Of a stretch of DNA of 64,000 nt, positions 7,414 through 53,037 are shown piece after piece; within the stretch, counting starts at the first letter, position 1; every line of letters begins with the position of its first letter. The DNA lies in the NCBI GenBank assembly GCA_035550055.1, contig DASZRO010000018.1, positions 94,743-158,742 of the forward strand, in the 5' to 3' direction. The translations under genes and the position numbers were made by a program. The notes beneath the pieces were generated by a model that made no database searches, was not told the origin of the DNA, and saw only the letters and a program-made list of their open reading frames with translations. This stretch comes from Mycobacteriales bacterium (GTDB taxonomy: Bacteria; Actinomycetota; Actinomycetes; JAFAQI01).

Positions 7414-7610
7414 CAGTAGCCTCCCTCGATCGTCAGCGCGCGTGTGGGGCAGTACGTCACCGCCAGCCGAACCGCCTCTTCGTGCTCGGGCGGCACGGAG
7501 TCGACGAGCAGCTCGACCTGGTCGGACCTGCCGACCTGGAAGACCTCGGGCGCCTCGAGCTCGCACATGGCATGGCCCTGACACAGGTCACGATCGACGC
7601 TGACTCTCAT
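7413..7610 (-). CDS. fdx: ferredoxin (single-cluster 3Fe-4S/4Fe-4S), P450 redox partner
   Basis: 65 aa with the CQGHAMC...CP cysteine pattern. Sits immediately downstream of cyp51 with a 4 nt overlap, as in the M. tuberculosis Rv0764c-Rv0763c pair. Confidence 0.85.
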   Translation of the reverse strand: MRVSVDRDLCQGHAMCELEAPEVFQVGRSDQVELLVDSVPPEHEEAVRLAVTYCPTRALTIEGGY

Positions 7611-16427: not shown

Positions 16428-17777
16428 CTAGAGCAGGACTCCCGGGTTCAGCAGACCGGCGGGATCGAGGGCCGCCCTGATCGCCCGCATGACGGCGATC
16501 TCGTCGGCCGACCGAGACAGCCCCAGGTACTCCGCCTTCGCGCGGCCGACCCCGTGCTCCGCGCTGATCGAGCCGCCGAAGGCGGACACCAGCTCGAGGA
16601 CGGCGCCTTCCACCTCCGCGTCCCGATCGAGGGCGTCGAGGACGTTGACGTGCAGATTGCCCTCGTTGACGTGGCCGAACAGCACGAGGCGCGCGTTGGG
16701 CGCGGCCGCGGCGATCGCTCCGGGAAGGTCGTCGACGAGCTCGGCCAGCCGGCCGATCGGCACCGCGACGTCCAGCTTCACCGGCACGCCGTTGGCGTTG
16801 ATCGATTCGGTGTGCGCCTCGCGGTAGCGCCACAGCGCGGCGCGGCCTCGCGCGTCTCCCGCGACCGTCGCATCGAGTACGACGTCGCCCGCCTGCTCGA
16901 TCGCTGCGAGAAGCTCGTCGGACGGGTCTTCGCTCGCGGCGCACTCGAGGACGACGTACGCGCCGTGCTCGTCGGGGAACGGCGCCGGCAACCCGGTGTG
17001 CTCGCACACCATCGCCAGGCCCGTTGGGTAGAACAGCTCGGCCGCTTCGAGGTCCGGCAGCGCCCGGGCAGCGCGTACCAGCTCGACCGCGTCGGAGGTC
17101 GACCCCACGGCGACGAGGGCGACCGCGCGCGCAGAGTGCAGCGGATGCAACCGGAGCCGGACTCGGGTGAGGACGCCGAGCGTGCCCTCGGCACCGGCGA
17201 GCAGCGACATCAGGTCGTAGCCGGTGTTGTCCTTCGGCAATCCCGCCAGCCGGGTGAGCACGCTGCCGTCCGCCAGCACGGCCTCGATGCCGGCGACCTG
17301 AGCGCGCATCGTGCCGTACCGCAGCACGCGTTCGCCGCCTGCGTTGGTCGACACCATTCCGCCGATCGTGCACGACTCCCGCGCCGCGAAGTCCACACCG
17401 ACGTCGAAGCCGCTCGGCCGCACCGCTTGCTGCACGCTGGCCAGCGTCGCCCCGGCACCGACGGTGATCTGGGCGGCAGCCCGGTCGATCTCGTCCACCG
17501 CTGACAACCGTCTCGTGCTCAGCAGCACCGCGCCGTCGACCGGGACCGAGCCACCTACGAGCCCAGTGTTCCCGCCCTGCACGCACACCGCGACACCCGC
17601 CTGACGGCAGGTCGTCACGACCGCGGCCGTCTCGGCGGTGTCGGCCGGACGGACCACGAGTCGGGCGTTAGCGCTGAACCGGCCGGTCCAGTCCGACTCG
17701 TACGACGCGCGCATGTCCCCGTCGAGCAGCACGTGGGACTCGCCGACGATCTCGGCGAGCGTTGCCTCGAGGGTCAC
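16428..17777 (-). CDS. FAD-linked oxidase (GlcD/D-2-hydroxyacid dehydrogenase family)
   Basis: FAD_binding_4 N-domain (VVRPADTAETAAVVTTCRQAGVAVCVQGGNTGLVGGSVP) and a FAD-oxidase C-domain. Confidence 0.85.
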   Translation of the reverse strand: MTLEATLAEIVGESHVLLDGDMRASYESDWTGRFSANARLVVRPADTAETAAVVTTCRQAGVAVCVQGGNTGLVGGSVPVDGAVLLSTRRLSAVDEIDRAAAQITVGAGATLASVQQAVRPSGFDVGVDFAARESCTIGGMVSTNAGGERVLRYGTMRAQVAGIEAVLADGSVLTRLAGLPKDNTGYDLMSLLAGAEGTLGVLTRVRLRLHPLHSARAVALVAVGSTSDAVELVRAARALPDLEAAELFYPTGLAMVCEHTGLPAPFPDEHGAYVVLECAASEDPSDELLAAIEQAGDVVLDATVAGDARGRAALWRYREAHTESINANGVPVKLDVAVPIGRLAELVDDLPGAIAAAAPNARLVLFGHVNEGNLHVNVLDALDRDAEVEGAVLELVSAFGGSISAEHGVGRAKAEYLGLSRSADEIAVMRAIRAALDPAGLLNPGVLL

Positions 17778-18991
17778 GACAGGACGCGGAGCCGGACGGT
17801 CTCCGGCATGGCCGCGAGCTCGGCCGGCACGTCCGACGGATAGTCGACGCCGATGTCGGTGATCACGTAGCCGAGCTCACCGCGGGTCCCCAGCAGCTGT
17901 CCCTCGATGTTGACCTTGTTCTCCGCGAGGACGCCGTTGATCGTCGCCAGGACGCCGGGAACGTTCTGGTGGAGGTGCGCGATGCGGTGGCTGTCCGGTC
18001 GAGACGGCAGGACGAGATGCGGGAGGTTGACGCTCATCGTCGTCGTACCGTCGACGACGTAGTCACGCAGCTTGCCCGCGACGTAATGGCCGATGTCCTG
18101 CTGTGCCTCCTCGGTCGAGCCGCCGATGTGCGGCGTGAGGATGACGTTGGGCAAGTCGCGCAGCACCGAGACGAACTCGTCGCCCTGCGCCTTCGGCTCC
18201 TCGGGGAACACGTCGACCGCGGCACCCGCGATGTGCCCGCTCTCCAGATGCGCACGCAACGCGTCGTGGTCGACGAGGAAGCCACGGGACAGGTTGAGGA
18301 ACAGGCTGCCCGGCTTCATCAGCGCGAACTGGTTCTCGCCGAACATGTCGGCGTTCGTCGCCCGCCCGTCGACGTGAAGCGTGACGATGTCCGACGTGCT
18401 GAGCAGCTCGTCGAGTGAGCTGCAGCGGCGCGCGTTGCCGAGCGCCAGCTTGTCGGCGGTGTCGAAGTACGACACGGACATGCCGAGCGCCTCGGCGATC
18501 ACCGACAGCTGCGCGCCGATGTTGCCGTAACCGACGATCCCGATCCGACGGCCCCGAATCTCGTGCGCTCCCGTTGCCGACTTGTCCCACACCCCCGCGT
18601 GGAGGTCGGCGTTCTTCTGCGTCAGTCGGCGGGTGAGCGCGATGATCTCCGCGATCGCGAGCTCGACCACACTGCGGGTGTTGGAAAACGGCGCGTTGAA
18701 GACCGCGATCCCGCGCGACGATGCCGCCGGCAGGTCGATCTGGTTCGTGCCGATGCAGAACGCGCCGATCGCGAGCAAGGAGTCGGCGCCTTCGAGAGCT
18801 GCCTCGGTCACGTCGGTCTTCGAGCGGATCCCGAGCAGCGACACGCCGCGAAGGCGATCGGCGAGCTCCGCGGGGTCGAGCGCACCTTTGGCCGTCTCGA
18901 CGTCGAAGCCTTCGGCAGCGAGCGCGGACGCCGCGTCCGGATGCACGTTCTCGAGCAACAACGCGCGAAGCGGCCCAGCCTGTGCAGTCAA
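17774..18991 (-). CDS. serA: D-3-phosphoglycerate dehydrogenase-like 2-hydroxyacid dehydrogenase with C-terminal ACT-like domain
   Basis: NAD-binding GIVGYGNIGAQ and catalytic R/E/H residues. About 405 aa, the short SerA form. 4 nt overlap with the FAD oxidase gene. Confidence 0.75.
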   Translation of the reverse strand: MTAQAGPLRALLLENVHPDAASALAAEGFDVETAKGALDPAELADRLRGVSLLGIRSKTDVTEAALEGADSLLAIGAFCIGTNQIDLPAASSRGIAVFNAPFSNTRSVVELAIAEIIALTRRLTQKNADLHAGVWDKSATGAHEIRGRRIGIVGYGNIGAQLSVIAEALGMSVSYFDTADKLALGNARRCSSLDELLSTSDIVTLHVDGRATNADMFGENQFALMKPGSLFLNLSRGFLVDHDALRAHLESGHIAGAAVDVFPEEPKAQGDEFVSVLRDLPNVILTPHIGGSTEEAQQDIGHYVAGKLRDYVVDGTTTMSVNLPHLVLPSRPDSHRIAHLHQNVPGVLATINGVLAENKVNIEGQLLGTRGELGYVITDIGVDYPSDVPAELAAMPETVRLRVLS

Positions 18992-24389: not shown

Positions 24390-25514
24390 GTGACTGACGC
24401 CACTCTCGAGATTCCCGCCGACCTGCGGCCAGGCGATGGCCGTTTCGGCTCTGGCCCGACGAAGGTCCGGCCGGAGCAGCTTGCAGCCCTTGCTGCGACC
24501 GGGACGTCCTACCTCGGTACGTCGCACCGGCAGGAGACCGTGCGCTCGGTCGTTCGGCGGGTCCGAGAGGGCATCGCGACGCTGTACGACCTGCCGGACG
24601 GATACGAGGTGATCCTCGGCAACGGCGGCGCGACGATCTTCTGGGACATCGCAACCCTCTGCCTGATCGAGCGTCGCTCGCAGCACATGGCGTTCGGTGA
24701 GTTCTCGACGAAGTTCGCAAAGGCGACCGCCGCGGCACCGCACCTCGAAGAGCCCTCGGTCCTCAAGGCCGACTACGGCCACGCCCCTGACGCCTTCGCG
24801 CCGGAGGCCGGGATCGACGCCTACTGCCTGCCGCACAACGAGACCTCCACCGGCGTGATGACCAGCATCCAGCGACCCGTCGGCGCGGACGCCGGAGCGC
24901 TGATGCTGGTGGATGCGACCAGCGCCGCGGGCGGTCTTCCCGTCGACCTGACGCAGACCGATGCCTATTACTTCGCGCCGCAGAAGGGCTTCGCCTCGGA
25001 CGGCGGGCTGTTCTTCGCGATCCTGTCACCCGCGGCGATCGAGCGCAGCGAGCGGCTCATCCCGCAGCGCTGGGTGCCGTCGACGCTGGACCTCGGAATC
25101 CACATCGAGCAATCGAGGCTCGAGCAGACCTACAACACACCCGCGCTCGCGACGGTGTTCCTCATGGCCGAGCAGGTCGAGTGGATGAACGCGCAGGGTG
25201 GGCTGGCCTGGGCAACCGAGCGCACTGGGGAGTCGGCGCGAATCCTCTACACGTGGGCGGACAAGGCGCCGTACGCCGAAGCCTTCGTCACCGACCCGGC
25301 GAAACGCTCGACCGTCGTCGGCACGATCCGGCTGGACGAGGCGATCGAGGCTGACAAGGTGGTCAAGGCACTGAAAGCCAACGGGATCCTCGACGTCGGC
25401 GCATACCGCGCGGCCGGGTACAACGGCCTGCGCGTCGGCATGTTCCCGGCGATCGATCCGGCAGACGTCGAAGCGCTCACCGCCTGCATCGACTGGGTGG
25501 TCGACCGGCTGTGA
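24390..25514 (+). CDS. serC: phosphoserine aminotransferase (actinobacterial SerC type)
   Basis: N-terminus FGSGPTKVRPEQL and the class-V aminotransferase fold. GTG start. Confidence 0.88.
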   Translation: MTDATLEIPADLRPGDGRFGSGPTKVRPEQLAALAATGTSYLGTSHRQETVRSVVRRVREGIATLYDLPDGYEVILGNGGATIFWDIATLCLIERRSQHMAFGEFSTKFAKATAAAPHLEEPSVLKADYGHAPDAFAPEAGIDAYCLPHNETSTGVMTSIQRPVGADAGALMLVDATSAAGGLPVDLTQTDAYYFAPQKGFASDGGLFFAILSPAAIERSERLIPQRWVPSTLDLGIHIEQSRLEQTYNTPALATVFLMAEQVEWMNAQGGLAWATERTGESARILYTWADKAPYAEAFVTDPAKRSTVVGTIRLDEAIEADKVVKALKANGILDVGAYRAAGYNGLRVGMFPAIDPADVEALTACIDWVVDRL

Positions 25515-33302: not shown

Positions 33303-35315
33303 TCAGGCCAGGGCGGCGACGAGGGCCGGGGCGTTCGGCGTACCGAGGCCGGTCGAGTCGTCGTAGCCGGGCAACGCCTGCAAGGTTCCGAGTACGCCGA
33401 TCGTTCGCAGCGTGTAGATGACCGCGGACTTCGGGTTGTCCCCGGTCGTGTAGTCCGGCCGGACGTCGGCCAGGCGGGTCAGCGCACCGCGCTTGGCCAC
33501 CGGCACCGGGTCGTAGAACAGCCGCTGCCGCTGCGCCGCGGTGCGCGAGTCGGCGTACATCGTCGGTGTCACCAGCCCGAGCCGGTGATGCGCCTCGGCG
33601 TCCGCGAGCGCCAGCAAGCCGGTGAACAGCGGCGAGGCCAGACTGGTCCCGCCGATCCGGTACTCGCCATAGCGGGTCGCGCCATCGGCGAAGCTCTGCG
33701 TCAGCCCGAGCGCGATCCCGGTGGTCGGGTCGGCGACCATCGACACGTCCGGCTCGACGCGGCCCGGCTGCATCAACCCGCCGTACGTCGCCTCGTCAGC
33801 CGGCACGATCCCGTACTGCCAGGCCGGCTCGCGGAAGATCGTGCTGTCGCCGCCGCCCCCGCCGTACATGTAGACCTTGTGCTGGTAGTCCCACTTCCCC
33901 TTGGTGAACGGGATCTTCTGCGTCCCCCAGTACGACTCGGAGACGCGCGCTCCGGTTCGCCCGATCTGCAGCGTCGTGCCGCCGACCGTGACGACCCCGG
34001 GGCTGGTGGTCGGGAAGTCCGCGACCCGATGCCCGGTGAGGGCGAGCTCGTCGCCGTCGTCACCGGAGGAGAAGGCGATCGTGACACCTTCGGCGGCGGC
34101 CTCGTTCGTGATCGCGTTGAGCACCTGTACGTCGCCGAGCACGGTGTCTTCGCTGTCATCCCCCCACGAGTTGCTCACCAGGTCGACCTTGCCGCTCTCG
34201 ACGGCTTGCGCCAGCGCGAGCAGGAGGTTGTCGACGCCGACCCCGATGCCTGCGACCTCTTCGTACGGGAGGTTGGCGACGGCCGAGTAGTAGGCGATGC
34301 TCGCGTCGGGCGCCATCCCGTGAACCGCTTCGATGTCGAGGGTCTCCTCACCGGCCCAACCCTGTCCGTCGAGGATCGGTACGCCGAGCAACGACAGCTC
34401 CGGCAGGCTCGACTCACCGGGGAAGGTGTGCTGCGTGAGCTGGCCGGGCCGCAACCGCGGCAGCCCCATCCGCTGCGACCACGTGTCGACGTCGGACTCG
34501 ACGGTCGGCGAGGCGTAGGCGTCGACGATCCCGACGGTGACGCCGCGGCCGGTCGAGTGCACCTGGTTCACGCCGTACGCCGAACGGATCTGGCCCATCG
34601 TGTAGCCGCAGACCGCGTACGGCGCGTGCCGGCCCTGGTAGGAGGGCAGCGTCGAGGCGACCTTCTGCCCGTAGTAGCGCGAGCACGGATGCGCGTTGAT
34701 GTACCCCGTCGGTGGTGACGCGTCCGACACCGCCGGGGTCTGCGCGAGCCCGACCACTGTCGCCGCGAGCGGCCGCAGCGCAGTGGGCATCGTCGGCTGC
34801 GACAGCGGCGCGCGCAGCAGGCGGCCGGCGACGTCGAACAGGCCGAAGGTCGTGGCGAACACCTTCCCGACCAGCGCGGACGTGGCGTGTGCCGTGATCA
34901 GCGTGCCGCCGGGCGTCGTGTTGTCGATCGTGAACCCCGCGTGCCGCAGCCAGGTCCGCGCCGCGGCCGTCTCGGCCGGCGCCGGTCCGAACCGGCGGGC
35001 GAACTCGGCGCGGGTCAGGAAGTGCCGGTACGACGCCGACGTCGGGTCGCTGACCGCCGCGTCGAAGCGCCGCAACGCGGCCGGATGACGACCCTTCAGC
35101 AGCACCGAGAACTGCACCAGCGCGTCCGGCGACTCGAGCTTCGCCGGCAGGACGTCTCGCGCCCACGCCGGGATCGCCTCGATCACCGACGCGAGGCTCC
35201 GCACCGGTTGCGCGGTCGGGCCAGCGGCGAGCGCCGGCGCTTCCAGGGCGGTGACCGCGAGTACTGCGGCGGCCGCGGCGAGGCGCAGGGTCGACCCGGT
35301 CTTCACCCCGCTCAT
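33303..35315 (-). CDS. secreted S53 family peptidase (sedolisin) with pro-kumamolisin activation domain
   Basis: Signal peptide, N-terminal pro-kumamolisin activation domain, and a catalytic Ser in GGTSLASPLFTG. Confidence 0.85.
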   Translation of the reverse strand: MSGVKTGSTLRLAAAAAVLAVTALEAPALAAGPTAQPVRSLASVIEAIPAWARDVLPAKLESPDALVQFSVLLKGRHPAALRRFDAAVSDPTSASYRHFLTRAEFARRFGPAPAETAAARTWLRHAGFTIDNTTPGGTLITAHATSALVGKVFATTFGLFDVAGRLLRAPLSQPTMPTALRPLAATVVGLAQTPAVSDASPPTGYINAHPCSRYYGQKVASTLPSYQGRHAPYAVCGYTMGQIRSAYGVNQVHSTGRGVTVGIVDAYASPTVESDVDTWSQRMGLPRLRPGQLTQHTFPGESSLPELSLLGVPILDGQGWAGEETLDIEAVHGMAPDASIAYYSAVANLPYEEVAGIGVGVDNLLLALAQAVESGKVDLVSNSWGDDSEDTVLGDVQVLNAITNEAAAEGVTIAFSSGDDGDELALTGHRVADFPTTSPGVVTVGGTTLQIGRTGARVSESYWGTQKIPFTKGKWDYQHKVYMYGGGGGDSTIFREPAWQYGIVPADEATYGGLMQPGRVEPDVSMVADPTTGIALGLTQSFADGATRYGEYRIGGTSLASPLFTGLLALADAEAHHRLGLVTPTMYADSRTAAQRQRLFYDPVPVAKRGALTRLADVRPDYTTGDNPKSAVIYTLRTIGVLGTLQALPGYDDSTGLGTPNAPALVAALA

Positions 35316-37354
35316 CTTGCCGCCCGGCGCGGGCCGGCGTGCCCTCGCACGCCGGCCAGCGCCGCGACCAGCGGGCCGGCGTTCGGCGTACCGAGACCGG
35401 TCGAGTCGTCGTAACCACGCAGCGACTGGAGCGTGCCGAGGTTCGACAGGATCCGCAGGCTGTAGGCGACCGGCGACTTGGGGTTGTCGGTGGCGGTGTG
35501 GTCCGGCCGGACGTCAGCCAACGTCGACAGGTCGTCGCGCAGCGGCACCGTCACCGGGTCGTAGAACAACCGCTTGCGCTCGGCCGCCTTGCCGGCCTCG
35601 GCGTAGAGGGTGGGCGTGACCAGCCCGAGCCGCTGGTGGCGTTCGGCGGCCGCCAGCGCGAGCAGCCCGGAGAACAGCGGACACGACACGCTCGTCCCAC
35701 CGATCCGGAACTCGCCGTAGCGGTTCGAGCCGTCGGCGAAGTGCTCCGTCAGTCCGATCAGCATGCCGGTGGTGGTGTCGGCCACCATCGACACGTCGGG
35801 CACGACCCGACCCGGCGCGCTCAGCCCGCCGTACGTCGCCTCGGCCGGCGGGACGACGCCGCGCTGCCATGCCGGCTCGGCGTACGCCGTGCTCACGCCG
35901 CCTCCGGCGCCGGAGCTGAACGCCTTGTCCTTCAAGTCCCACGAACCCTTGTCCAGCTTCGCGATGTCGGTGCCCCAGTACGACTCGGAGATCCGCTTGC
36001 CGTTGGCGCCGACCTCCAGCGTGGTGCCGCCGACCGCCGTCACCTCGGGGCTGGTCGCCGGGAAGTCCGCCTGCCGCTTGCCGCTGGCGGCCAGCTCGTC
36101 GCCGGAGTCGCCGGAGGAGAAGTCGAGCGTGATGCCCTCCGCCGCGGCCTGGTTGGCGACGGCGTCGAAGATCTGCAGGTCGCCCGGGGTCAGGTGCTCG
36201 CCGGCCGCTCCCCAGGAGTTGCTGATGATCGCGACCTTGTCATCGGACACCGCCTGCGCCAGCGCGACGAACAGCGGCTCGATCCCGATCTCGAAGCCGA
36301 CCTCGTTGAGACCGATCGCTCCGCCAATCGCGGCGTAGTAGTCGATGTCGGCACCGGGCGCCATCGCGTGGACCGCCTCGACATCGAGGCTCTCCTCCGG
36401 CTCGACGTCCTGCGGGTCGATGATCGGCAGGACCACCGACACCTCCGGCAGGCTCGACAGACCCGGAAGGACGTGTTGGGTGAGCTGGCCGGACCGCAGC
36501 GCCGGAAGACCCATGTGACGCGACCAGGTGTCGACGTCGGACTCGATCGTCGGCGACGCGTACGGGTCGACGATGCCGACCGCGGCGCCCTTGCCGGTCG
36601 AGGCGACCTGGTTGACGCCGTACGCCGACCGCAGCTGCCCGGCGGTGTAGCCGCACAACGCGTAGGGCTGGTGCTTGCCGAGGTAGGTCGGCAGCGACTT
36701 GGCGATCTTCTGGCCGTAGAAGTGCGAGCACGGCCGGGCGTTCACGTACGCCGGCGCCGGCCCGGCGTCCGTCACGGCGCGGTTCTGGGCGAGTCCCATC
36801 ACGGCCGACACGAACGGGTGCAGCGCACCGGGCAGCGACGGCTCGGTCAGCGGCGAGCGCAGCAGCTCACCGGCCACCCGGAACAACCCGAACGTCGTGT
36901 CGAACACCTTGCCGACGACCGACGCCGCCGCGTGCGCGGTGATCAGCGACGTGCTCGTCGAGTCGATCACGAAGCCGGCGTCGCGAAGCCACGACGTGGC
37001 GGCGGCCACCTCGGCCGCAGTCGGGCCGAACCGCCGCTGGTACTCCGCCCTGGTCAGGAAGTGCCGGTACGACGGCGAGGCCGGGTCGCTGACCCGGGCC
37101 ACCAGCTCGTTGAGCGCGGCCGGGTGGCGGCCCTTCAACAGCAGCGAGACCTGGACCGGCGCGGCCGCGGGCTCGACCCGTGCCGGTGCCACGCCGCGGG
37201 CCCACGACGGGATGGCGTCGAGCACGGCGTCAAGCCGCGGCGCCGACCGGTCCGACGCGGTGGCGGCGAGTGCCGGCGCCCCTGTCGCGGCGATTGCGAC
37301 GACGGCCGCGACCGAGATGAAACGCATGGCGGGGCGAGGCTTCATCGGGCTCAT
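35312..37354 (-). CDS. secreted S53 family peptidase (sedolisin), tandem paralog
   Basis: Same architecture as the previous gene, with GGTSVSCPLFSG. ATGA overlap with the paralog. Confidence 0.85.
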   Translation of the reverse strand: MSPMKPRPAMRFISVAAVVAIAATGAPALAATASDRSAPRLDAVLDAIPSWARGVAPARVEPAAAPVQVSLLLKGRHPAALNELVARVSDPASPSYRHFLTRAEYQRRFGPTAAEVAAATSWLRDAGFVIDSTSTSLITAHAAASVVGKVFDTTFGLFRVAGELLRSPLTEPSLPGALHPFVSAVMGLAQNRAVTDAGPAPAYVNARPCSHFYGQKIAKSLPTYLGKHQPYALCGYTAGQLRSAYGVNQVASTGKGAAVGIVDPYASPTIESDVDTWSRHMGLPALRSGQLTQHVLPGLSSLPEVSVVLPIIDPQDVEPEESLDVEAVHAMAPGADIDYYAAIGGAIGLNEVGFEIGIEPLFVALAQAVSDDKVAIISNSWGAAGEHLTPGDLQIFDAVANQAAAEGITLDFSSGDSGDELAASGKRQADFPATSPEVTAVGGTTLEVGANGKRISESYWGTDIAKLDKGSWDLKDKAFSSGAGGGVSTAYAEPAWQRGVVPPAEATYGGLSAPGRVVPDVSMVADTTTGMLIGLTEHFADGSNRYGEFRIGGTSVSCPLFSGLLALAAAERHQRLGLVTPTLYAEAGKAAERKRLFYDPVTVPLRDDLSTLADVRPDHTATDNPKSPVAYSLRILSNLGTLQSLRGYDDSTGLGTPNAGPLVAALAGVRGHAGPRRAAR

Positions 37355-37445: not shown

Positions 37446-39210
<1,765 letters not shown>

Positions 39211-39245: not shown

Positions 39246-39439
39246 CCGTCGGTCGGGGCCCGAAATCCCCGGTCGGTGAGCTCGCGGCGCGTCCCGCGTC
39301 ACGCCCGGCCGAACGTGTCGTTATTGTGTGCGGGCGCGCCCAACCGGGCGCGCGTCGCATTCGCACCGCCAAACCTGTCCGGCGAATGCGTCGCCTTCAA
39401 TCCCAGACGGACGGGGCCGGGGACCCAAAAGTTCTACCC

Positions 39440-39556
39440 AGCAACTGGAACGCGCACGCGCGTTTCACGGAGCGATTCGCTCCTTGGGGTGAAGCCGTCT
39501 CACGACGGCCGGGTGATCCACTCACCCGAACCCGACAGCTAACTCGGCAGGCGTCG
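39440..39556 (+). ncRNA. candidate ydaO-type (c-di-AMP) riboswitch in the NlpC/P60 leader
   Basis: Segments TTGGGGTGAAGCC, CCGGGTGATCC and ACCCGAACCCGACAGCTAACTCGGCAGGCG resemble conserved ydaO blocks. The SD sequence GGAG lies just downstream. Confidence 0.4.
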
Positions 39557-39567
39557 GAGTGGACTTC

Positions 39568-40377
39568 ATGCTGCCTTCGCATACCTGTGCCCGCTTTCGC
39601 ACCGTCGTACTCGCCGGCCTGACCGCCGGTTTGGTCGTGTCCGCCGCCGGTACTGCCTCCGCCGCCCCGACCGGGCGACCCACGAGCACCGCGACCGACA
39701 CCGAGACCCACTCGGGGACGAACTCCGGGTCCCACTCGGGGACGAACTCCGGGACGGCGAGCCCCGCCGACCCCACCCCGACCGACCCGACCACGACGAG
39801 CCCGTCCGACCCGACCGCGCCCACATCTCCTGGCGATCCGGGCGCGGCGACCGGCGATCCGAGCGATCCGACGACCGGCCCGACACTTCCGATCGACCCG
39901 AACCTGCCGGCCATCACCTTCGAGCTGCCGCAGGCCAGCGCCCACTTGCGCTACGAGCGCGCCCGGTTGCGCCGCCGCGAATGGCACCAGCACGCGGTGA
40001 GCGCGGTGCTCACGGAGGCGCGCCGCCAGGCCGGCAAGCCGTACGTCTACGGCGCAGCCGGACCGAGTTCCTTCGACTGCTCCGGGCTGGTCCGCTACGT
40101 CTTCGGCCACGCGATCGGTGACTGGCTGCCGCACAACGCCGCCGCGCAGTACGCCGTCATCGAACACATCAAGCGTCGTGACCTCGAGCCGGGCGACCTT
40201 GTCTTCCAGGAGTCGGGCGGCTACCCGTTCCACGTCGGGATCTACGCCGGCCACGACAAGTGGTGGCACGCGCCGCACACCGGCGCGGTCGTGCACAAGC
40301 AGACGATCTACCGCGGCCACCTGTTCTACGGCCGAGTCCTCACCAGCCGGATGGCCCGGCAGCGCACCCGCCACTAA
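39568..40377 (+). CDS. secreted NlpC/P60 family peptidoglycan hydrolase
   Basis: Signal peptide, a Thr/Pro/Ser-rich linker, and C-terminal YVYGAAGPSSFDCSGLVRYVFGHAIG...H...H. The ATG at 39568 has an RBS; the track's alternative start is at 39559. Confidence 0.8.
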   Translation: MLPSHTCARFRTVVLAGLTAGLVVSAAGTASAAPTGRPTSTATDTETHSGTNSGSHSGTNSGTASPADPTPTDPTTTSPSDPTAPTSPGDPGAATGDPSDPTTGPTLPIDPNLPAITFELPQASAHLRYERARLRRREWHQHAVSAVLTEARRQAGKPYVYGAAGPSSFDCSGLVRYVFGHAIGDWLPHNAAAQYAVIEHIKRRDLEPGDLVFQESGGYPFHVGIYAGHDKWWHAPHTGAVVHKQTIYRGHLFYGRVLTSRMARQRTRH

Positions 40378-40458
40378 GAAAACACAAACGTGACGCGTGA
40401 GCCCTCCTGAGGCGGGTCACCCACCTCAGGAGGCTGCTCTCGTCACGTTTGTGTTCGC
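40378..40458. repeat. nested palindrome P1: GAAAACACAAACGTGACG..[CCTCCTGAGG-loop-CCTCAGGAGG]..CGTCACGTTTGTGTTCGC
   Basis: 15 bp outer arms and 10 bp inner arms read directly. The right arm encodes the C-terminus of the 40426-41352 gene. Confidence 0.8.
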
Positions 40459-41352
40459 TTCGGCACCGAGGTCGAGCAGCCGGCGTACCGCGGTCACGAC
40501 GTACGCCGGATCCTGCGTGACGTCGAACCACGTCACGACGGCAAGGCGCCAGCCGGCGGCGGTGATCGCCGTCCAACGACGCCGATCCCGGCGGAAGTAC
40601 TCGCGCGAGGAGTGATAGGCGTAGCCGTCGCATTCGAGTACGGCGCGCAGCTGCGGCCAGGCGAAGTCGACGAAGCCGACCCAGCCGGTTGCGCTGCTCT
40701 TCAACGAGAGCTGAGTGACCGGGATCGGCAGCCCTTCGCGCCAGAGCAGGACGCGGGTCAGTGACTCGAGCACCGAGCCGCTGAGCGGATCGACCAGGCC
40801 GGCGACGGTCTGGATGCGCAGCCGGCCCGGCCCTTTGGCGCCGCGAGCGACCGCCGCGAACTCCGCGTCGGTGAAGTGGCGCTGCCGGATGAAGGCATCG
40901 ATGATCGCGACCGCCTGGTCGATCGGTGCGTGCCGGGCGATGTCGAGACAGGTACGCAGCGGCGTCGTCACCAGGGCGCCGTTGCGGAACTCGACGTCGG
41001 TGCGCGCAAGGTCCGCACGGTGCAGCCGGACGCCTGCCACCGCCTCGGCGTACCGCCCTCGATGGCGCGGCACCGTCACGTGGATCTGGGTCAACGGCGT
41101 CGGCAGGTCGACGCCGTGCCAGGCGACCGCGGATTGGTAGCTGATCACGGCGTACCAGCCGTTGGCGATCCGACGCGGCTCGGGCAGCGGGTCGCCGACG
41201 GCGTACACCCCGCGTGCGATGCGGGCGACCGAGCCGGTGCTCACGAGCTCACTCAGCACCCGGGCGCTGACCCCGGTCGCGAGCACTTGCGAGCGGGTCA
41301 GGACCCCGCCGTTGTCACGCGCGATCGGGGCGATGAGGGTGAGCGCATCCAC
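40426..41352 (-). CDS. AbiEi_4 (type IV TA antitoxin-like N-domain) plus DUF559 (Vsr/PD-(D/E)xK-like endonuclease fold) protein
   Basis: N-terminal segment GVLTRSQVLATGVSARVLSELVSTGSVARIARGVYAV and C-terminal segment VDFAWPQLRAVLECDGYAYHSSREYFRRDRRRWTAITAAGWRLAVVTWFDV. Confidence 0.75.
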   Translation of the reverse strand: MDALTLIAPIARDNGGVLTRSQVLATGVSARVLSELVSTGSVARIARGVYAVGDPLPEPRRIANGWYAVISYQSAVAWHGVDLPTPLTQIHVTVPRHRGRYAEAVAGVRLHRADLARTDVEFRNGALVTTPLRTCLDIARHAPIDQAVAIIDAFIRQRHFTDAEFAAVARGAKGPGRLRIQTVAGLVDPLSGSVLESLTRVLLWREGLPIPVTQLSLKSSATGWVGFVDFAWPQLRAVLECDGYAYHSSREYFRRDRRRWTAITAAGWRLAVVTWFDVTQDPAYVVTAVRRLLDLGAEANTNVTRAAS

Positions 41353-41439: not shown

Positions 41440-41520
41440 GGAAACACAAACGTTGCGGAATCCCGTTATCGCGTTGGAGGTCGCTGGCGAGAACGTGATT
41501 CCTGCAACGTTTGTGTTTCC
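41440..41520. repeat. nested palindrome P2: GGAAACACAAACGTTGC..[GGAATCCCGTT..AACGTGATTCC]..GCAACGTTTGTGTTTCC
   Basis: 17 bp perfect outer arms sharing the AACACAAACGT core with P1. Confidence 0.8.
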
Positions 41521-41577
41521 TTCGGTACGTCGAAGGGCTACGGCGGGTACGGCGGGTCAGCCGGCGGGTACGGCGGG

Positions 41578-41853
41578 TCAGCCGCCGGCTACGGCGGGGA
41601 TGATCGACACCGATGCGCCGTCGGGCGTTGGCGTCTGCAGGCCTTCGGCGAAGCGGACGTCGTCGTCGTTGACGTAGACGTTGACGAACCTGCGGAGCTT
41701 GCCGTCCTCGTCGAGCACCCGCGCCCGGATGCCGGTGTGGTCGGCTTCGAGGGCGTCGAGTACGTCGGCGAGGGTCGCACCCTCCGCGGTGACCTCGGCC
41801 GCGCCGCCGGTCAGCGATCGCAGGATCGTGGGCACGCGCACTGTCACTGCCAT
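41578..41853 (-). CDS. MoaD/ThiS-family sulfur-carrier protein (CysO/MetO-like), C-terminal GG
   Basis: MAVTVRVPTILRSLTGG...RFVNVYVNDDDVRFAEGLQTPTPDGASVSIIPAVAGG* closely parallels M. tuberculosis CysO. Confidence 0.8.
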   Translation of the reverse strand: MAVTVRVPTILRSLTGGAAEVTAEGATLADVLDALEADHTGIRARVLDEDGKLRRFVNVYVNDDDVRFAEGLQTPTPDGASVSIIPAVAGG

Positions 41854-41908
41854 GTCGAGGCCCCCGCGAAGTCGTGGCGCGCGCCGAGACGACGGCGTCG
41901 GATGTCGG

Positions 41909-43165
41909 TCATTGGTGCAATCCTGCCGCACGGAACGCGTCGAGCGTCGCCGGGATCGTCGCCGTCGGCCGGGCGACCGGCTCGACCGCGTCGAGGGTCT
42001 TTAGGCCGTCGCCGGTGTTGAGGATCACCGTCTCGGCCGCTGGGTCGAGCTGGCCCGACGCGAGCAGCTTGCGCAGCGTCGCGACGGTCACCCCGCCGGC
42101 GGTCTCGCCGAAGATGCCGGTCGTCCGCGCGAGCAGCTGGATGCCCTCGACCACCTCGTCGTCGCTGACGTCCTCGATCGCGCCACCGGTACGACGTGCC
42201 ACGTCGAGCGCGTAGGGCCCGTCCGCCGGGTTGCCGATCGCGAGCGACTTCGCGATGCCGCTCGGGCGCACCGGCTGCACGACGTCGTGCCCAGCCCGGA
42301 AGGCGGTCGCCACCGGAGAGCACCCGGACGACTGCGCGCCGAACACCTTGTACGGCGTCGCGTCGACCAGCCCGAGCTTGCCGAGCTCGCGCCAGGCCTT
42401 GTCGACCTTGGTGAGCAGCGAACCCGACGCGATCGGGATGACGACCTGCTCGGGCAACCGCCAGCCGAGCTGTTCGGCGATCTCGTAGCCGACGGTCTTG
42501 GAGCCTTCGGCGTAGAACGGCCGGACGTTGACGTTGACGAACGCCCACGGCAGCTCGCCCGCGACCTCCGCACACAGCCGGTTCACGTCGTCGTAGGAGC
42601 CTTCGACGGCGACGAGCGTGCCGCCGTACACCGCCGTCGTGACGACCTTGCCCGCCTCGAGGTCGTGCGGGATGAACACGACCGACTTCATCCCGCAGCT
42701 GGCGGCAGCGGCGGCGACGGCGTTGGCCAGGTTGCCCGTCGACGCGCAGGACAGTACGTCGAAGCCGAGCGCACGGGCAGCGTTGGCCGCGACGCCGACC
42801 ACCCGGTCCTTGAACGAGTGCGTCGGGTTGCCGCTGTCGTCTTTGACCCACAGCGTCTTCATGCCGAGCTCACGGGCGAGGTTGTCCGCCCGCACCAGTC
42901 GTGTCATGCCGACCTGCAGGTCGACGACCGGCGCGGCCGGCAGCAGGCCGGCGTAGCGCCACATCGTCTGCGGGCCGGCCGCGACCGACTCGCGGGTGAC
43001 CAGGCGTTGCAGGTCCTCGTCATAGGCGATCTCGAGCGGGCCGAAACACATCTCGCAGACGTGCGACGGACCGATCTCGTACTGCGTGCCGCACTCGCGA
43101 CAGACCAGGTGGGACGCCGAGCCGAAGGCAGCGGCGCGCTCTAGCACCGAAGTGGGTGACATCAA
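41909..43165 (-). CDS. threonine synthase homolog with N-terminal zinc ribbon (ThrC/MetM-like PLP fold-II enzyme)
   Basis: Zn ribbon CRECGTQYE...CEMC and the PLP-lysine motif HSFKDR. This is not the canonical thrC type. The sulfur-carrier gene is 55 nt downstream. Confidence 0.8.
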   Translation of the reverse strand: MMSPTSVLERAAAFGSASHLVCRECGTQYEIGPSHVCEMCFGPLEIAYDEDLQRLVTRESVAAGPQTMWRYAGLLPAAPVVDLQVGMTRLVRADNLARELGMKTLWVKDDSGNPTHSFKDRVVGVAANAARALGFDVLSCASTGNLANAVAAAAASCGMKSVVFIPHDLEAGKVVTTAVYGGTLVAVEGSYDDVNRLCAEVAGELPWAFVNVNVRPFYAEGSKTVGYEIAEQLGWRLPEQVVIPIASGSLLTKVDKAWRELGKLGLVDATPYKVFGAQSSGCSPVATAFRAGHDVVQPVRPSGIAKSLAIGNPADGPYALDVARRTGGAIEDVSDDEVVEGIQLLARTTGIFGETAGGVTVATLRKLLASGQLDPAAETVILNTGDGLKTLDAVEPVARPTATIPATLDAFRAAGLHQ

Positions 43166-43288
43166 AGAGGCCTTCCGTCCTCATCTTCCCCCCGGACGGT
43201 TGCCCGAAGGCCGGATGTGGCACCTGCCCGAGACGGGTGGTTGCCGGGGCTTCAACGGGCCGGTTCCCTCAGCCCCTCTTGATGAGAG

Positions 43289-44767
43289 GTGCGCCCGCCC
43301 GAAAGCGGGTGCAGTGATCAGTTTGCCATACGCCGGCCGGCGACAGCCGCCGGGTTTCTTTCGGCTCCTAGTCTTTTGGTCGTGGCAAGCGCCTCGGTTG
43401 TCATCGCGTCGAACCGCGGGCCGCTGTCGTTCTCACGCGACGACGACGGCCGAACCACGTCGCGGCGAGGCGGCGGGGGGCTGGTCTCCGCCATGGCGAT
43501 CGCGGCCGCGGCGCCCGGCGCCGTCTGGGTGTGCGCCGCGTTGTCCGACACCGACCGCGAGGTCGCAGCTGCCGCCGAAGGCGGGCGGGTCGATCTCGCC
43601 GGGTTCGACACCGAAGGCGCCGCGGTACGCATGCTCGGCATCGACGCAGGGGTGCTCGACGGCGCGTACACATCTATCTCGAACTCGACGCTGTGGCCGC
43701 TCAACCACGGCCTCGGGAAGCCGGCGGCGTACGACGAGCGGTGGCGCGAGGACTGGCAGCGCTACGTCGCCTACAACGAGACGTTCGCCGCGGCGATCGC
43801 CGAGGAAGCCGAGCCGCACGCCCGGATCCTGGTGCAGGACTACCACCTGAACCTGGTGCCCGCGGCGCTGCGGGAGCGGCGTCCCGACCTGCGAATCGCG
43901 CACTTCACCCACACGCCGTGGGCGGCTCCCCGAGACTTCGCAACGCTGCCGGACGACGTCGCGCGCGCGGTGATCGAGGGCCTGCTCGGTGCCGACTCTC
44001 TCGGCTTCCACTCCCCGCGCTGGGCCGCGGAGTTCGCGGAGTGCGCGTCGGCACTGGGCATCGAGGTCGCGGTGCCGCTGCGCGTCCATCCGCTGGGGGT
44101 CGACGCAGCGCCGCTGCGCGCCCGGGCAAGCGAGCCTGACGTCGCGCAGCGGCGCGCGGAGCTTCGCGCCGAGGTGGGCGGGGCACGCATCATCGGCCGC
44201 GTCGACCGCACGGAACCGGCGAAGAACATCCATCGCGGGCTGCTGGCCTTCGCCGACCTGCTGCGCCGTCATCCGGAGCACGTCGGCAACGTCGTCCACG
44301 TTGCGCTCGCCTATCCCAGTCGGCAGGACGTCGCGGAGTACCGCGACTACACCGACCTGTGCCGCCAGACCGCGGCGGCGATCAACGCCGAGCTCGGTGA
44401 CGGCGGCTGGCAACCGGTCCACCTCGACGTCAAGGACGACTACGCGCGCTCGCTGGCGACCCTGTCGTCCGCCGACGTCCTGCTGGTGAACTCGTTGCGC
44501 GACGGGATGAACCTCGTCGCCAAGGAAGGTGTGCTCCTCAACGACTGCGCCGGTCTCGTGCTGTCACGGGAGACCGGCGCCGCCGACGAGATGACCGAGG
44601 CGCTGCTGGTCGATCCGCTCGACGTCGAGGCGACCACGGCGGCGATGCACGCCGCGCTGACGATGCCGGACGGCGAGCGCGCCGCTCGCTATGCCGAGCT
44701 CGCCCGGGTCGCGGCCGCCCTGCCGCCGCGCGAGTGGCTCCAGCAGCAGCTCGACGTACTGGGTTGA
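43289..44767 (+). CDS. otsA: alpha,alpha-trehalose-phosphate synthase
   Basis: GT20 signatures (VVIASNRGP, LVQDYHL, GADSLGFHSPRWA, NSLRDGMNLVAKE). An alternative GTG start lies near 43382. Confidence 0.85.
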   Translation: MRPPESGCSDQFAIRRPATAAGFLSAPSLLVVASASVVIASNRGPLSFSRDDDGRTTSRRGGGGLVSAMAIAAAAPGAVWVCAALSDTDREVAAAAEGGRVDLAGFDTEGAAVRMLGIDAGVLDGAYTSISNSTLWPLNHGLGKPAAYDERWREDWQRYVAYNETFAAAIAEEAEPHARILVQDYHLNLVPAALRERRPDLRIAHFTHTPWAAPRDFATLPDDVARAVIEGLLGADSLGFHSPRWAAEFAECASALGIEVAVPLRVHPLGVDAAPLRARASEPDVAQRRAELRAEVGGARIIGRVDRTEPAKNIHRGLLAFADLLRRHPEHVGNVVHVALAYPSRQDVAEYRDYTDLCRQTAAAINAELGDGGWQPVHLDVKDDYARSLATLSSADVLLVNSLRDGMNLVAKEGVLLNDCAGLVLSRETGAADEMTEALLVDPLDVEATTAAMHAALTMPDGERAARYAELARVAAALPPREWLQQQLDVLG

Positions 44768-47879: not shown

Positions 47880-47909
47880 GGGCTCATCCTGCCACCGACG
47901 ACAGCACCG

Positions 47910-47982
47910 AGCCCCGTGTCCGGATTGAACGGACGACCGCTCGCTTACAAGGCGAGTGCTCTACCACTGAGCTAACGGGGCA
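47910..47982 (-). tRNA. tRNA-Thr (anticodon UGU)
   Basis: Cloverleaf read on the minus strand: GCCCCGT-TA-GCTC-AGTGGT-AGAGC-A-CTCGC-CTTGTAA-GCGAG-CGGTC-GTCCG-TTCAATC-CGGAC-ACGGGGC-T. No encoded CCA. Confidence 0.85.

Positions 47983-51660: not shown

Positions 51661-53037
<1,377 letters not shown>

Follow-up and report, generated by a model that had tools for sequence, protein, structure and literature searches.

In Mycobacterium tuberculosis, the CysM/CysO/Mec system reportedly passes sulfur, in the form of a protein thiocarboxylate, to a fold-type II PLP enzyme that acts on an O-phospho amino acid. In Wolinella succinogenes, the HcyS/HcyF/HcyD/MetY system is said to take the sulfur of homocysteine from a ThiS-like thiocarboxylate; the enzyme there is an O-acetylhomoserine sulfhydrylase of the MetY type (fold-type I), and the E1 and protease genes are clustered with it.

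For the actinobacteria, MetM/MetO-mediated synthesis of homocysteine from O-phospho-L-homoserine (OPH) has been described in Streptomyces albulus (Hasebe, Adachi, Maruyama, Hamano 2024, Appl Environ Microbiol 90:e01247-24). As that work is relayed by a later paper (PMC12172450), metM of S. albulus has a SAM riboswitch upstream and metO adjacent to it, and prevents methionine auxotrophy. The GapMind preprint of 2026 lists MetO, Mec, MoeZ, and MetM in the pathway and points out that threonine synthase is a frequent misannotation of MetM. For S. coelicolor, the sulfate-assimilation genes are listed together with SCO4293 ('thrC') and SCO4294, which change in step with them (PMC2267785). A 'moonlighting ThrC' of Microcystis aeruginosa, on the other hand, is reported to act as threonine synthase and deaminase in vitro, with no rise of methionine in vivo (PMC12172450).

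Here a pair of genes of this kind is analysed in a 64-kb stretch of DNA (hereafter the window) from an uncultured lineage of the GTDB-Mycobacteriales. The best explanation of the locus, and a very probable one, is a SAM-repressed metM-metO operon for the synthesis of homocysteine from OPH, leading to methionine. The pathway itself is already known (Streptomyces, 2024), and the pair in the window is an ordinary further case of a routinely mis-annotated locus. The original prediction, which had named this MetM/MetO-type route, is supported by the riboswitch in 80 of 80 loci, by the clade shared with Streptomyces, and by the likeness of the carriers. It had, however, confined the unit to 41578-43165 and thereby left the strongest evidence, the riboswitch, outside.

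Organization of the locus

The features of the locus are collected in Table 1.

Table 1. Features of the metM-metO locus, in order of transcription (window coordinates)
Feature	Position	Strand	Evidence
SAM-I (S-box) riboswitch aptamer, operon leader	43178..43288	-	Rfam RF00162
Linker from the P1 3' strand to the start codon, with purine-rich GGAAGG (43171-43176)	43166..43177	-	sequence reading
metM-like gene, 417 aa; ThrC-homologous fold-type II PLP enzyme, putative MetO-thiocarboxylate-dependent homocysteine synthase	41909..43162	-	PALP, orthologues, tree, AF2 model
N-terminal Zn-ribbon-like motif, Cys21-x2-Cys24 ... Cys36-x2-Cys39	43046..43102	-	alignments
Lys118 codon, predicted PLP Schiff-base lysine in NPTHSFKDRV	42809..42811	-	alignments
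metM-metO intergenic spacer, 55 nt	41854..41908	-	alignment with L002 and L003
metO-like gene, 91 aa; ThiS/MoaD-fold sulfur carrier ending IPAVAGG-stop	41578..41853	-	ThiS PF02597, CysO matches, tree

The identities of the two genes and of the riboswitch were computed here, as were the orthology to the riboswitch-linked pair of Streptomyces and the absence of partner enzymes from the window. The reaction chemistry is taken by analogy from the literature, that is, from Hasebe et al. (2024) as described in papers citing it.

The SAM-I riboswitch leader

The leader matches RF00162 of Rfam over the full length of the model (1-108/108), scoring 81.6 bits where the gathering score is 44.4 (E = 1.1e-17), and the aptamer ends 15 nt from the metM ATG on the same strand. 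A SAM-I element lies upstream of the orthologous enzyme in all 80 genome loci (Actinomycetota, with about 30 Streptomyces species among them). It likewise precedes the orthologue in two close relatives (L002 and L003), which makes 83 of 83 actinobacterial members in all; an Rfam check of the riboswitch in related loci confirmed 10 of 10. The riboswitch therefore places the operon in the methionine/SAM regulon. Moreover, an OFF-switch responding to SAM fits an enzyme of the methionine branch and not a threonine synthase, a competitor for OPH.

When the 80 riboswitch sequences are aligned, pairing holds in 98.3% of the cells and compensatory changes occur in 17 pairs, a level reached in none of 500 shuffles. 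Covariation is strong in P3 and P4, and P1 is invariant in sequence across the 80 loci. The distance from the aptamer to the start is 9-25 nt in 77 of the 83 loci. The invariant P1 together with this short distance supports a model in which the ribosome-binding site lies in or next to P1, and GGAAGG in the linker is presumably the regulated site. No terminator was found between the aptamer and metM, where the 12-15 nt available leave too little room for one. The minimum free energy folds of the leader are ambiguous, with two alternative pairings: that of the start codon with the P1 5' strand, and a GAGG/CCUC hairpin. The switch is thus presumed to be translational on comparative evidence, not on folding. 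A terminator-like hairpin on the plus strand (43337-43353) was disregarded, since 0.8 such sites per region are expected by chance.

The metM-like enzyme

The enzyme had been described as a 418-aa ThrC-like fold-type II PLP protein. An open reading frame of 418 aa does exist (41909-43165, minus strand) if read from TTG. The next codon, however, is the ATG at 43162, which is the start used by an identical 417-aa database protein (P0001) and by close relatives, and 417 aa is therefore the likelier product. The PALP domain of the enzyme (Pfam, E = 1.9e-65), the ThiS domain of the carrier (PF02597, E = 3.3e-17), and the GC3 values of the two frames (0.92 and 0.84, respectively) indicate that both are real genes and not chance reading frames.

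The enzyme is 61-73% identical to 80 actinobacterial orthologues, including those of Streptomyces, 73% being the best among the genome matches listed. In about 30 Streptomyces species there is a single homologue linked to both riboswitch and carrier, with 63-67% tblastn identity to the window enzyme. Orthology to MetM of S. albulus is presumed through these other Streptomyces species, taken as a proxy in the sequence comparisons. The phylogeny that had been suggested as a check, against MetM, CysM, and ThrC, was accordingly made with Streptomyces homologues. In the neighbor-joining tree the enzyme falls within a tight actinobacterial clade with them (65-72% identity over the trimmed alignment), apart from the canonical ThrC of B. 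subtilis, T. thermophilus, A. aeolicus, and M. tuberculosis (33-37%). A CysM-like identity of the enzyme was ruled out, as the PDB search matched no CysM or CysK at E<=1e-10. Identity to B. subtilis ThrC is 33%, the same value as is reported for S. albulus MetM in the accounts that cite it.

The AF2 model (pLDDT 93.2) has the ThrC fold, with a TM of ~0.9 to solved threonine synthases. Lys118 is invariant in two alignments, one of the closest eight sequences and one of 37 diverse sequences, and it aligns with the SFKDRG lysine of the solved ThrC structures. The earlier assignment to the Zn-ribbon type of ThrC homologue, as distinct from canonical thrC, agrees with the N-terminus: every one of the 83 relatives examined has the motif CxxC-x11-CxxC, and the region that carries it is missing from canonical ThrC, whose alignments begin at residue ~64-78. 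None of the four cysteines varies among the closest eight; over the 37 diverse sequences this still holds for C21 and C36, and almost holds for C24 and C39. There is also a weak Pfam match to a NinF-type zinc ribbon at residues 22-45. The motif is Zn-ribbon-like and a putative metal site. Foldseek against the PDB returned no solved Zn-ribbon ThrC-like structure.

The active site differs from that of canonical ThrC in a consistent manner. At the positions aligned with T88, S155, N157, R160, and N188 of T. thermophilus ThrC, the clade has invariant L145, N212, R214, Y217, and S246, respectively. Among the 21 clade members compared, at most one deviates at any of the positions L145, N212, Y217, and S246, and the residues that these four replace are invariant in the solved ThrC structures. 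T88, S155, R160, and N188 presumably surround the substrate phosphate in the T. thermophilus enzyme. Such clade-wide substitutions could explain a switch of reaction specificity from ThrC to MetM.

It is noteworthy that all the relatives bear the name 'threonine synthase' in the databases. The window enzyme scores above the cut-off of TIGR00260, the NCBIfam equivalog model of thrC (264.7 bits, cut-off 167.1), and the closest model is NF006050, with a score below its cut-off (274.8 bits, cut-off 303).

The metO-like carrier and the spacer

The product of the second gene, read from the ATG at 41853, has the sequence MAVTVRVPTILR...IPAVAGG, so that the mature Gly-Gly C-terminus is encoded directly. 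The 91-aa MoaD/ThiS protein ending AVAGG that had been placed 55 nt downstream of the enzyme was verified in all respects, i.e., reading frame, spacer, and ThiS match. It aligns from residue 1 with all its homologues and with the solved CysO structures. A longer reading frame (41578-41931, 117 aa, from GTG at 41931) was rejected, since the homologues all start at MAVTV and the extension stems from a lineage-specific insertion.

The carrier has full-length matches to CysO of A. orientalis (4n6e_B, 2.8e-28) and of M. tuberculosis (3dwg_C, 6.8e-27). Its likeness to CysO was thus rightly noticed. Identity to M. tuberculosis CysO is 58%, however, as compared with 78% to a metM-linked carrier of Streptomyces, and the metM-linked carriers of about 30 Streptomyces species range from 73 to 79%. 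In the carrier tree the window protein groups with metM-linked carriers, and the two solved CysO proteins form a separate branch. The carrier also exceeds the cut-off of the SAMP1 model NF041918 (66.2 bits, cut-off 60), with no E1 nearby; the fact that the host is a bacterium and the setting within the operon suggest a sulfur carrier. Among the 66 carriers retrieved, the C-terminus is GG in 44 and GG-Cys in 17. The latter are in keeping with the '[MetO]-L-cysteine hydrolase Mec' step of the published pathway.

In L002 and L003 metM and metO overlap by ATGA, and relative to these the window has an insertion of ~57 nt, which leaves 55 nt between the enzyme stop and the carrier start. The spacer was considered as an unusual trait and rejected as such, because gaps of anything from -4 to 174 nt occur across the 66 loci.

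Genomic context and distribution

Pfam scans of the ~58 called genes of the window gave no E1 (ThiF/MoeZ), rhodanese, JAB/JAMM/Mec, CysM/CysK, or canonical met gene. The earlier remark that no E1-like or JAMM gene is adjacent can therefore be extended to the whole 64 kb. Neither hom nor thrB is found in the window, and across 15 diverse related loci no E1 or peptidase gene recurs as a neighbour. Canonical met genes elsewhere in the genome would bear only on the essentiality of the pair, not on its function.

The module was matched in at least 589 species genomes, with 80 genome loci examined in detail. The carrier gene directly follows the enzyme gene in 62 of these 80, including every Streptomyces locus. 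Another ~13 related loci, none of them truncated, have riboswitch and enzyme and no adjacent carrier, which suggests that the carrier may not be obligatory.

Weighing of alternative explanations

The fold, with its TM of ~0.9 to solved threonine synthases, and the TIGR00260 score are what would be expected of a genuine threonine synthase, possibly bifunctional as synthase and deaminase, in a divergent 'unique ThrC' lineage, to which the small protein would be unrelated or accessory. The Microcystis homologue, which shares 51.6% identity with MetM and likewise has a MetO-like gene beside it, is reported to have such activities in vitro (PMC12172450). This explanation is nevertheless very unlikely. 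A SAM OFF-riboswitch on 83 of 83 actinobacterial members is the wrong regulatory logic for a threonine synthase, the gene is tightly linked to a GG-terminal sulfur carrier, and, at 33-37% identity to canonical ThrC, ThrC-invariant positions are substituted throughout the clade. It is also opposed by the listing of the S. coelicolor pair with sulfate-assimilation genes (PMC2267785) and by the S. albulus genetics, as cited in PMC12172450. The Microcystis gene has no riboswitch and may have diverged in role.

The small protein, for its part, might be the CysO of the organism, serving CysM and merely parked beside a ThrC-like gene, or shared by CysM and MetM. Its highly significant matches to structurally characterised CysO agree with this, and 58% identity, taken alone, is compatible with a paralogue; the several lineages with riboswitch and metM and no adjacent carrier imply, moreover, that MetM can be served by a carrier whose gene lies elsewhere. 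Such a role is improbable, however, considering that the 64 kb have no cysM or mec, that the gene is part of an operon under SAM control and in close relatives shares an ATGA overlap with metM, and that it groups with metM-linked carriers and not with the two CysO proteins. In addition, the cysM-SCO2911-SCO2912 cluster of S. coelicolor is distinct from SCO4293/4294 (PMC2267785); SCO2911 is presumably CysO. The same ~13 carrier-less loci may be read in favor of free sulfide or another small donor for MetM, the carrier being dispensable or having a SAMP/Urm1-like role in sulfur transfer or protein modification; the SAMP1 score is in line with the latter, and in the Microcystis study Na2S was used to mimic MetM activity, with reference to Hasebe et al. 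(PMC12172450). Against this stand the AVAGG(C) tail conserved among metM-linked carriers, the arrangement of the pair as predicted co-transcribed and often translationally coupled genes in 62 of 80 genome loci, and the GapMind preprint (2026), which calls MetM 'MetO-thiocarboxylate-dependent'. A small donor is likewise very unlikely. MetM/MetO-type homocysteine synthesis is therefore the supported and most likely function, with the putative chemistry of the enzyme assigned by likeness to the Streptomyces pair.

A model of the pathway and its control

Under the MetM/MetO reading, the carrier MetO (91 aa, with the Gly-Gly end already present) would be adenylated and then converted to its C-terminal thiocarboxylate, presumably by a MoeZ-type E1/rhodanese whose gene lies elsewhere in the genome and which probably serves other sulfur carriers as well. 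MetM, the ThrC-like PLP enzyme, would bind OPH at Lys118-PLP and eliminate the gamma-phosphate. The MetO thiocarboxylate would then attack C-gamma, whereas threonine synthase adds water at C-beta. Homocysteine might be released directly, or through the cutting of a putative MetO-homocysteine adduct by a Mec-type JAMM hydrolase, likewise encoded elsewhere, and would be methylated by MetE or MetH. When SAM is abundant, its binding to the leader aptamer would stabilise helix P1 and shut off translation; the ribosome-binding region would lie 8-15 nt ahead of the AUG and consist of the P1 3' strand (GAUGAGGA) with GGAAGG next to it.

A broader view may be put forward tentatively, and it is rather doubtful as a whole. 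SAM-riboswitch-metM(-metO) may be an ancient module of the Actinomycetota, fixed in position between otsA and groEL2 and not a peculiarity of Streptomyces, and perhaps the principal source of homocysteine, or even the sole one, in lineages like this uncultured member of the Mycobacteriales. Its switch would be an unusually compact translational SAM-I switch, in which the invariant P1 3' strand doubles as ribosome-binding region. Its enzyme would be a ThrC paralogue with a rebuilt phosphate pocket (T88L, S155N, R160Y, N188S, and the new Arg214) that redirects the attack, from water at C-beta to a protein thiocarboxylate at C-gamma.

The scientific value of the case is modest, as the pathway was published in 2024. 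What is added here is that the module is phylum-wide, with a SAM riboswitch at every locus examined and sometimes without a carrier, and that the MetM clade has a consistent set of active-site substitutions. As the clade goes by the name of 'threonine synthase' across public databases, metabolic reconstructions of Actinomycetota gain a spurious second thrC and miss a route to methionine. A simple rule for re-annotation can be built on three marks: the riboswitch, a GG carrier next to the enzyme, and the residues specific to the clade.

Comparison with known systems

In canonical ThrC (PDB 6CGQ, 1UIM, 2ZSJ, 2D1F), the fold, the SFKDR motif of the PLP lysine, and the expected substrate, OPH, are those of the window enzyme, which differs in the extra N-terminus of ~65 residues with the Zn-ribbon motif and in its linkage to carrier and riboswitch. 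The context is also distinct: canonical thrC belongs to hom-thrC-thrB and is not SAM-repressed, whereas the window gene stands without hom or thrB and behind a SAM riboswitch. The Microcystis ThrC shares the Zn-ribbon ThrC-like family with the window enzyme, but it is without the SAM riboswitch and is reported as threonine synthase/deaminase, not as homocysteine synthase (PMC12172450).

The M. tuberculosis CysM/CysO/Mec system resembles the locus in its carrier, with the same PAVAGG tail (PDB 3DWG). In contrast, the partner in the window is ThrC-like and under SAM-riboswitch control, with no adjacent mec; by analogy, its expected substrate would be OPH instead of O-phosphoserine, and the reaction a gamma- and not a beta-replacement. 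With the Wolinella route the locus would share a ThiS-like thiocarboxylate as sulfur donor for homocysteine, although the window enzyme is ThrC-like, with OPH as its expected substrate, and has no E1 or protease nearby.

The closest likeness is to MetM/MetO of S. albulus, which, as known from papers citing that work, has the same order of riboswitch, ThrC-homologous PLP enzyme, and ThiS/MoaD-fold GG carrier. In the pathway as presented in the GapMind preprint (2026), MoeZ and Mec are listed separately, with which the lack of both from the window agrees. Several differences remain within this likeness. The three-part locus here belongs to an uncultured lineage of the GTDB-Mycobacteriales and not to Streptomyces. 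The window carrier ends in GG, whereas many of the 17 carriers with GG-Cys ends are from Streptomyces. The 55-nt spacer takes the place of the ATGA overlap of the closest relatives, and downstream of the pair an AbiEi-type gene is inserted, unlike in the known metM-metO locus.

The metM-metO reading and the enzyme

The best-supported reading of the window is that it holds a putative SAM-repressed metM-metO operon, with a metM-like gene for a ThrC-homologous PLP enzyme and a metO-like gene for a small ThiS/MoaD-fold carrier. The MetM/MetO-type homocysteine synthesis originally proposed for it is supported by the clade that the enzyme shares with Streptomyces homologues, by a SAM-I riboswitch upstream, and by the linked carrier gene.

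Features of the window, with positions and strands
Feature	Position	Strand	Remark
Cytochrome P450 genes (three, within 8 kb)	2871-4094, 7607-8962, 9002-10195	- (all)
SerA-like D-3-phosphoglycerate dehydrogenase	17774-18991	-	ACT domain
Class-V aminotransferase (SerC-like)	24390-25514	+	adjoins citrate synthase
Tandem pro-kumamolisin/sedolisin-type (S53/S8) secreted peptidases	33303-35315, 35312-37354	-
groEL	37446-39155	-
c-di-AMP (ydaO-type) riboswitch	39382-39568	+	RF00379, 70.8 bits
NlpC/P60 cell-wall hydrolase gene	39559-40377	+	preceded by c-di-AMP riboswitch
AbiEi-type gene, antitoxin-like	40426-41352	-	308 aa; AbiEi_4/AbiEi_1/MTES_1575 domains
Perfect 17-bp inverted repeat GGAAACACAAACGTTGC	41440-41456 + 41504-41520		arms 47 nt apart
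Carrier ORF	open from GTG 41931; ATG 41853 gives 91 aa	-	MAVTVRVPTILR...IPAVAGG
Insertion (~57 nt), just after ancestral ATGA overlap	41854-41911	-	alignment with L002, L003
Enzyme ORF	41909-43165	-	418 aa from TTG
SAM-I riboswitch aptamer, full-length	43178-43288	-	Rfam scan of whole window
tRNA-Thr (anticodon TGT)	47909-47981	-	just upstream of glutamate dehydrogenase gene
Cysteinyl-tRNA synthetase	51661-53037	-

The enzyme gene has a coding-type GC3 (0.92), and its product matches Pfam PALP (1.9e-65) and carries a CxxC-x11-CxxC motif at residues 21-39. Therefore, with coordinates that also agree, its description as a 418-aa Zn-ribbon ThrC-like protein is correct except for a one-codon question at the start, TTG or ATG. 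An ATG (43162) is the codon right after the TTG, the identical protein on record (P0001) has 417 aa, and MSPTSV is the start point of close relatives too. The motif is found in all 83 relatives examined; canonical threonine synthases are without it, and their alignments begin at residue ~64-78. The database proteins nearest to it (80-100% identical) are without exception labelled threonine synthase, and all belong to MAGs of uncultured 'Mycobacteriales bacterium'. The AlphaFold model (pLDDT 93.2) resembles solved threonine synthases (target-normalised TM ~0.9, 30-35% identity); Foldseek against the PDB found no solved structure of a Zn-ribbon ThrC-like protein, and CysM is not among the PDB matches at E<=1e-10.

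In a neighbour-joining tree (398 trimmed columns) the enzyme lies inside a tight actinobacterial clade with Streptomyces homologues (65-72% identity), surrounded by more distant Zn-ribbon relatives (34-55%). The canonical ThrC of B. subtilis, T. thermophilus, A. aeolicus and M. tuberculosis (33-37%; 33% for B. subtilis) form a separate clade. Seven T. thermophilus positions invariant in these four bacterial ThrCs (G58, G64, T88, S155, N157, R160 and N188) are replaced across the clade (21 members compared), their counterparts being, in order, H115, V121, L145, N212, R214, Y217 and S246. Four of them (T88, S155, R160 and N188) we take to hold the substrate/product phosphate that directs water to C-beta (structures of Omi et al. 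2003; Murakawa et al. 2011). If these residue roles are correct, the threonine-synthase specificity pocket would have been rebuilt in the clade.

The SAM-I riboswitch

The SAM-I aptamer (81.6 bits against a gathering score of 44.4, E=1.1e-17) lies upstream of the enzyme gene, with its 3' end 15 nt from the ATG. It lies outside the region of the original prediction, which missed it. It is the most informative single fact on the locus, since riboswitches of this kind regulate the metabolism of methionine and SAM.

With a covariance model made from three riboswitches, the aptamer is found immediately 5' of the enzyme gene, and on its strand, in each of the best 80 of at least 589 confirmed relatives; Rfam's own model confirms it in 10 of 10 loci checked. 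Of 83 loci, 77 have the start codon 9-25 nt from the aptamer, and in the other six the start seems to have been picked wrongly. No terminator was found, and none fits, between aptamer and gene. Across the 80 loci, P1 (CUCAUC:GAUGAG) is sequence-invariant, while P4 and distal P3 show compensatory changes at every pair. Start distance, lack of a terminator, and invariant P1 beside covarying P3/P4 together point to control that is probably translational. The invariance is as expected if the 3' strand of P1, GAUGAGGA, followed by G(A)AAGG, doubles as the ribosome-binding region. Single-sequence folding does not settle the SAM-free alternative structure of the leader, so that this role of P1 is one we infer.

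The carrier

Read as 91 aa, the carrier matches every homologue, and also two solved CysO structures, from its first residue onward. Its gene has a coding-type GC3 (0.84) and a Pfam ThiS match (3.3e-17), and its ATG lies 55 nt from the enzyme stop; this spacing, the length of 91 aa and the AVAGG end are as predicted. The likeness to CysO also holds, because the matches to the A. orientalis (2.8e-28) and M. tuberculosis (6.8e-27) proteins are full-length, at 58% identity. Identity to a Streptomyces metM-linked carrier is 78%, and in the carrier tree the two CysO proteins branch away from all metM-linked carriers.

Among the 66 carriers retrieved, 44 end in AVAGG and 17 in AVAGGC. The latter tails explain the '[MetO]-L-cysteine hydrolase Mec' listed in the published pathway (GapMind 2026); the window carrier, ending AVAGG, would not need trimming by a Mec-type hydrolase.

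A 21-nt tandem repeat (41541-41598, 2.8 copies, 94% match) covers the last seven carrier codons and the stop; after the coding PAVAGG-stop come a degenerate copy, which reads PAVPAG-stop, and part of a third.

Related loci and gene order

Two long contigs of close relatives, L002 (82% identity) and L003 (94%), have the gene order of the window and the same SAM riboswitch. In both, the enzyme and carrier genes overlap by ATGA, and relative to them the ~57-nt insertion accounts for the 55-nt spacer of the window. The ancestral carrier ATG no longer shares the reading frame, and its place is taken by a new one (41853); thus, translational coupling has been lost in the window lineage.

The best 80 relatives (61-73% identity; one genome per species scanned) include Streptomyces (~30 species), Kitasatospora, Streptosporangium, Nonomuraea, Actinomadura, Kribbella, Nocardioides, Blastococcus, Jatrophihabitans, Lentzea and others. 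The carrier gene immediately follows the enzyme gene in 62 of these 80, including every Streptomyces locus, with gaps of -4 to 174 nt across loci. About 13 non-truncated loci are without an adjacent carrier (Blastococcus/Trujillonella, Jatrophihabitans, Sporichthyaceae, Lentzea and some MAGs); their readable downstream flanks usually hold a cold-shock gene and/or groEL, and in some cases unrelated ORFs. Riboswitch and metM-like gene without adjacent carrier are seen in loci L006, L009, L022, L027, L029, L039, L041, L043, L046, L049, L057, L060, L070 and L078, which implies a carrier encoded elsewhere or another sulfur donor.

In the flanks of 15 diverse loci, the Pfam domains that recur are OtsA (11), GroEL (11), OtsB (8), DUF3263 (5) and LytR_C (4). 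Therefore, the place of the module, between otsA and groEL2, is old and fixed. No recurrent E1, JAMM or met enzymes were seen in these flanks, and therefore the genes of its partner enzymes as a rule lie elsewhere. The predicted absence of an adjacent E1 or JAMM gene extends to the entire 64 kb: about 58 genes, called by GC3 and scanned against Pfam, include no ThiF/MoeZ-type E1, rhodanese, JAB/Mec or CysM/CysK, and no MetX/Y/B/C/E/H, Hom or ThrB.

The window has a G+C content of 68-74%. Beyond the SAM riboswitch lie a divergent otsA, then otsB, LytR_C, DUF3263, glutamate dehydrogenase and tRNA-Thr; L002 and L003 likewise have a tRNA gene close to the one for glutamate dehydrogenase. Both relatives also have the pairing of c-di-AMP riboswitch and NlpC/P60 gene. 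The AbiEi-type gene, inserted between the carrier and NlpC/P60 genes, is present in L003 and not in L002; no cognate AbiEii toxin gene is seen beside it. Between its start and the carrier stop is the inverted repeat, AT-richer than its surroundings and with a chance expectation of none, which occurs only in the window and the identical contig L001 (absent from the other 82 loci) and might serve to terminate the operon or as an operator for AbiEi. The tandem peptidases are ~670-680 aa each, with a 4-nt gene overlap, and the P450 genes are accompanied by periplasmic-binding-protein, SnoaL-like and dehydrogenase genes. The SerA-like, SerC-like and cysteinyl-tRNA synthetase genes are housekeeping genes outside the metM unit.

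Comparison with known systems

Under the proposed mechanism, metM-metO would form an operon repressed by SAM, and MetO would receive its thiocarboxylate from a MoeZ-type enzyme whose gene lies elsewhere. MetM would eliminate phosphate from PLP-bound O-phosphohomoserine and then take the thiocarboxylate at C-gamma; homocysteine would be released, possibly through a MetO adduct cut by Mec.

PMC12172450 describes MetM as a novel homocysteine synthase in Streptomyces that prevents methionine auxotrophy, with a SAM riboswitch upstream of S. albulus metM and with metO as a sulfur-carrier gene. It cites the original study (Hasebe et al. 2024, Appl Environ Microbiol 90:e01247-24). From the same text comes the dissenting evidence: a Microcystis homologue, 51.6% identical to MetM and with a MetO-like neighbour but without a riboswitch, for which in vitro threonine synthase/deaminase activity is reported. 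In S. coelicolor, SCO4293 ('thrC') and SCO4294 are listed and co-vary with the sulfate-assimilation genes (transcriptome, PMC2267785). GapMind 2026, which also cites the original study, names MetO, Mec, MoeZ and MetM and states that MetM is frequently annotated wrongly as threonine synthase; a third citing text, a 2026 preprint, repeats this description and also reports 33% identity between S. albulus MetM and B. subtilis ThrC, the value found for the window enzyme.

The window locus, from an uncultured Mycobacteriales-type actinobacterium, is thus predicted from comparative sequence data to be orthologous to the pathway published in 2024, and helps to correct the systematic 'threonine synthase' annotation. 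To the Streptomyces system the comparison adds SAM-riboswitch control in all loci examined, fixed synteny, carrier-less variants, GG versus GG-Cys tails, and clade-specific active-site substitutions.
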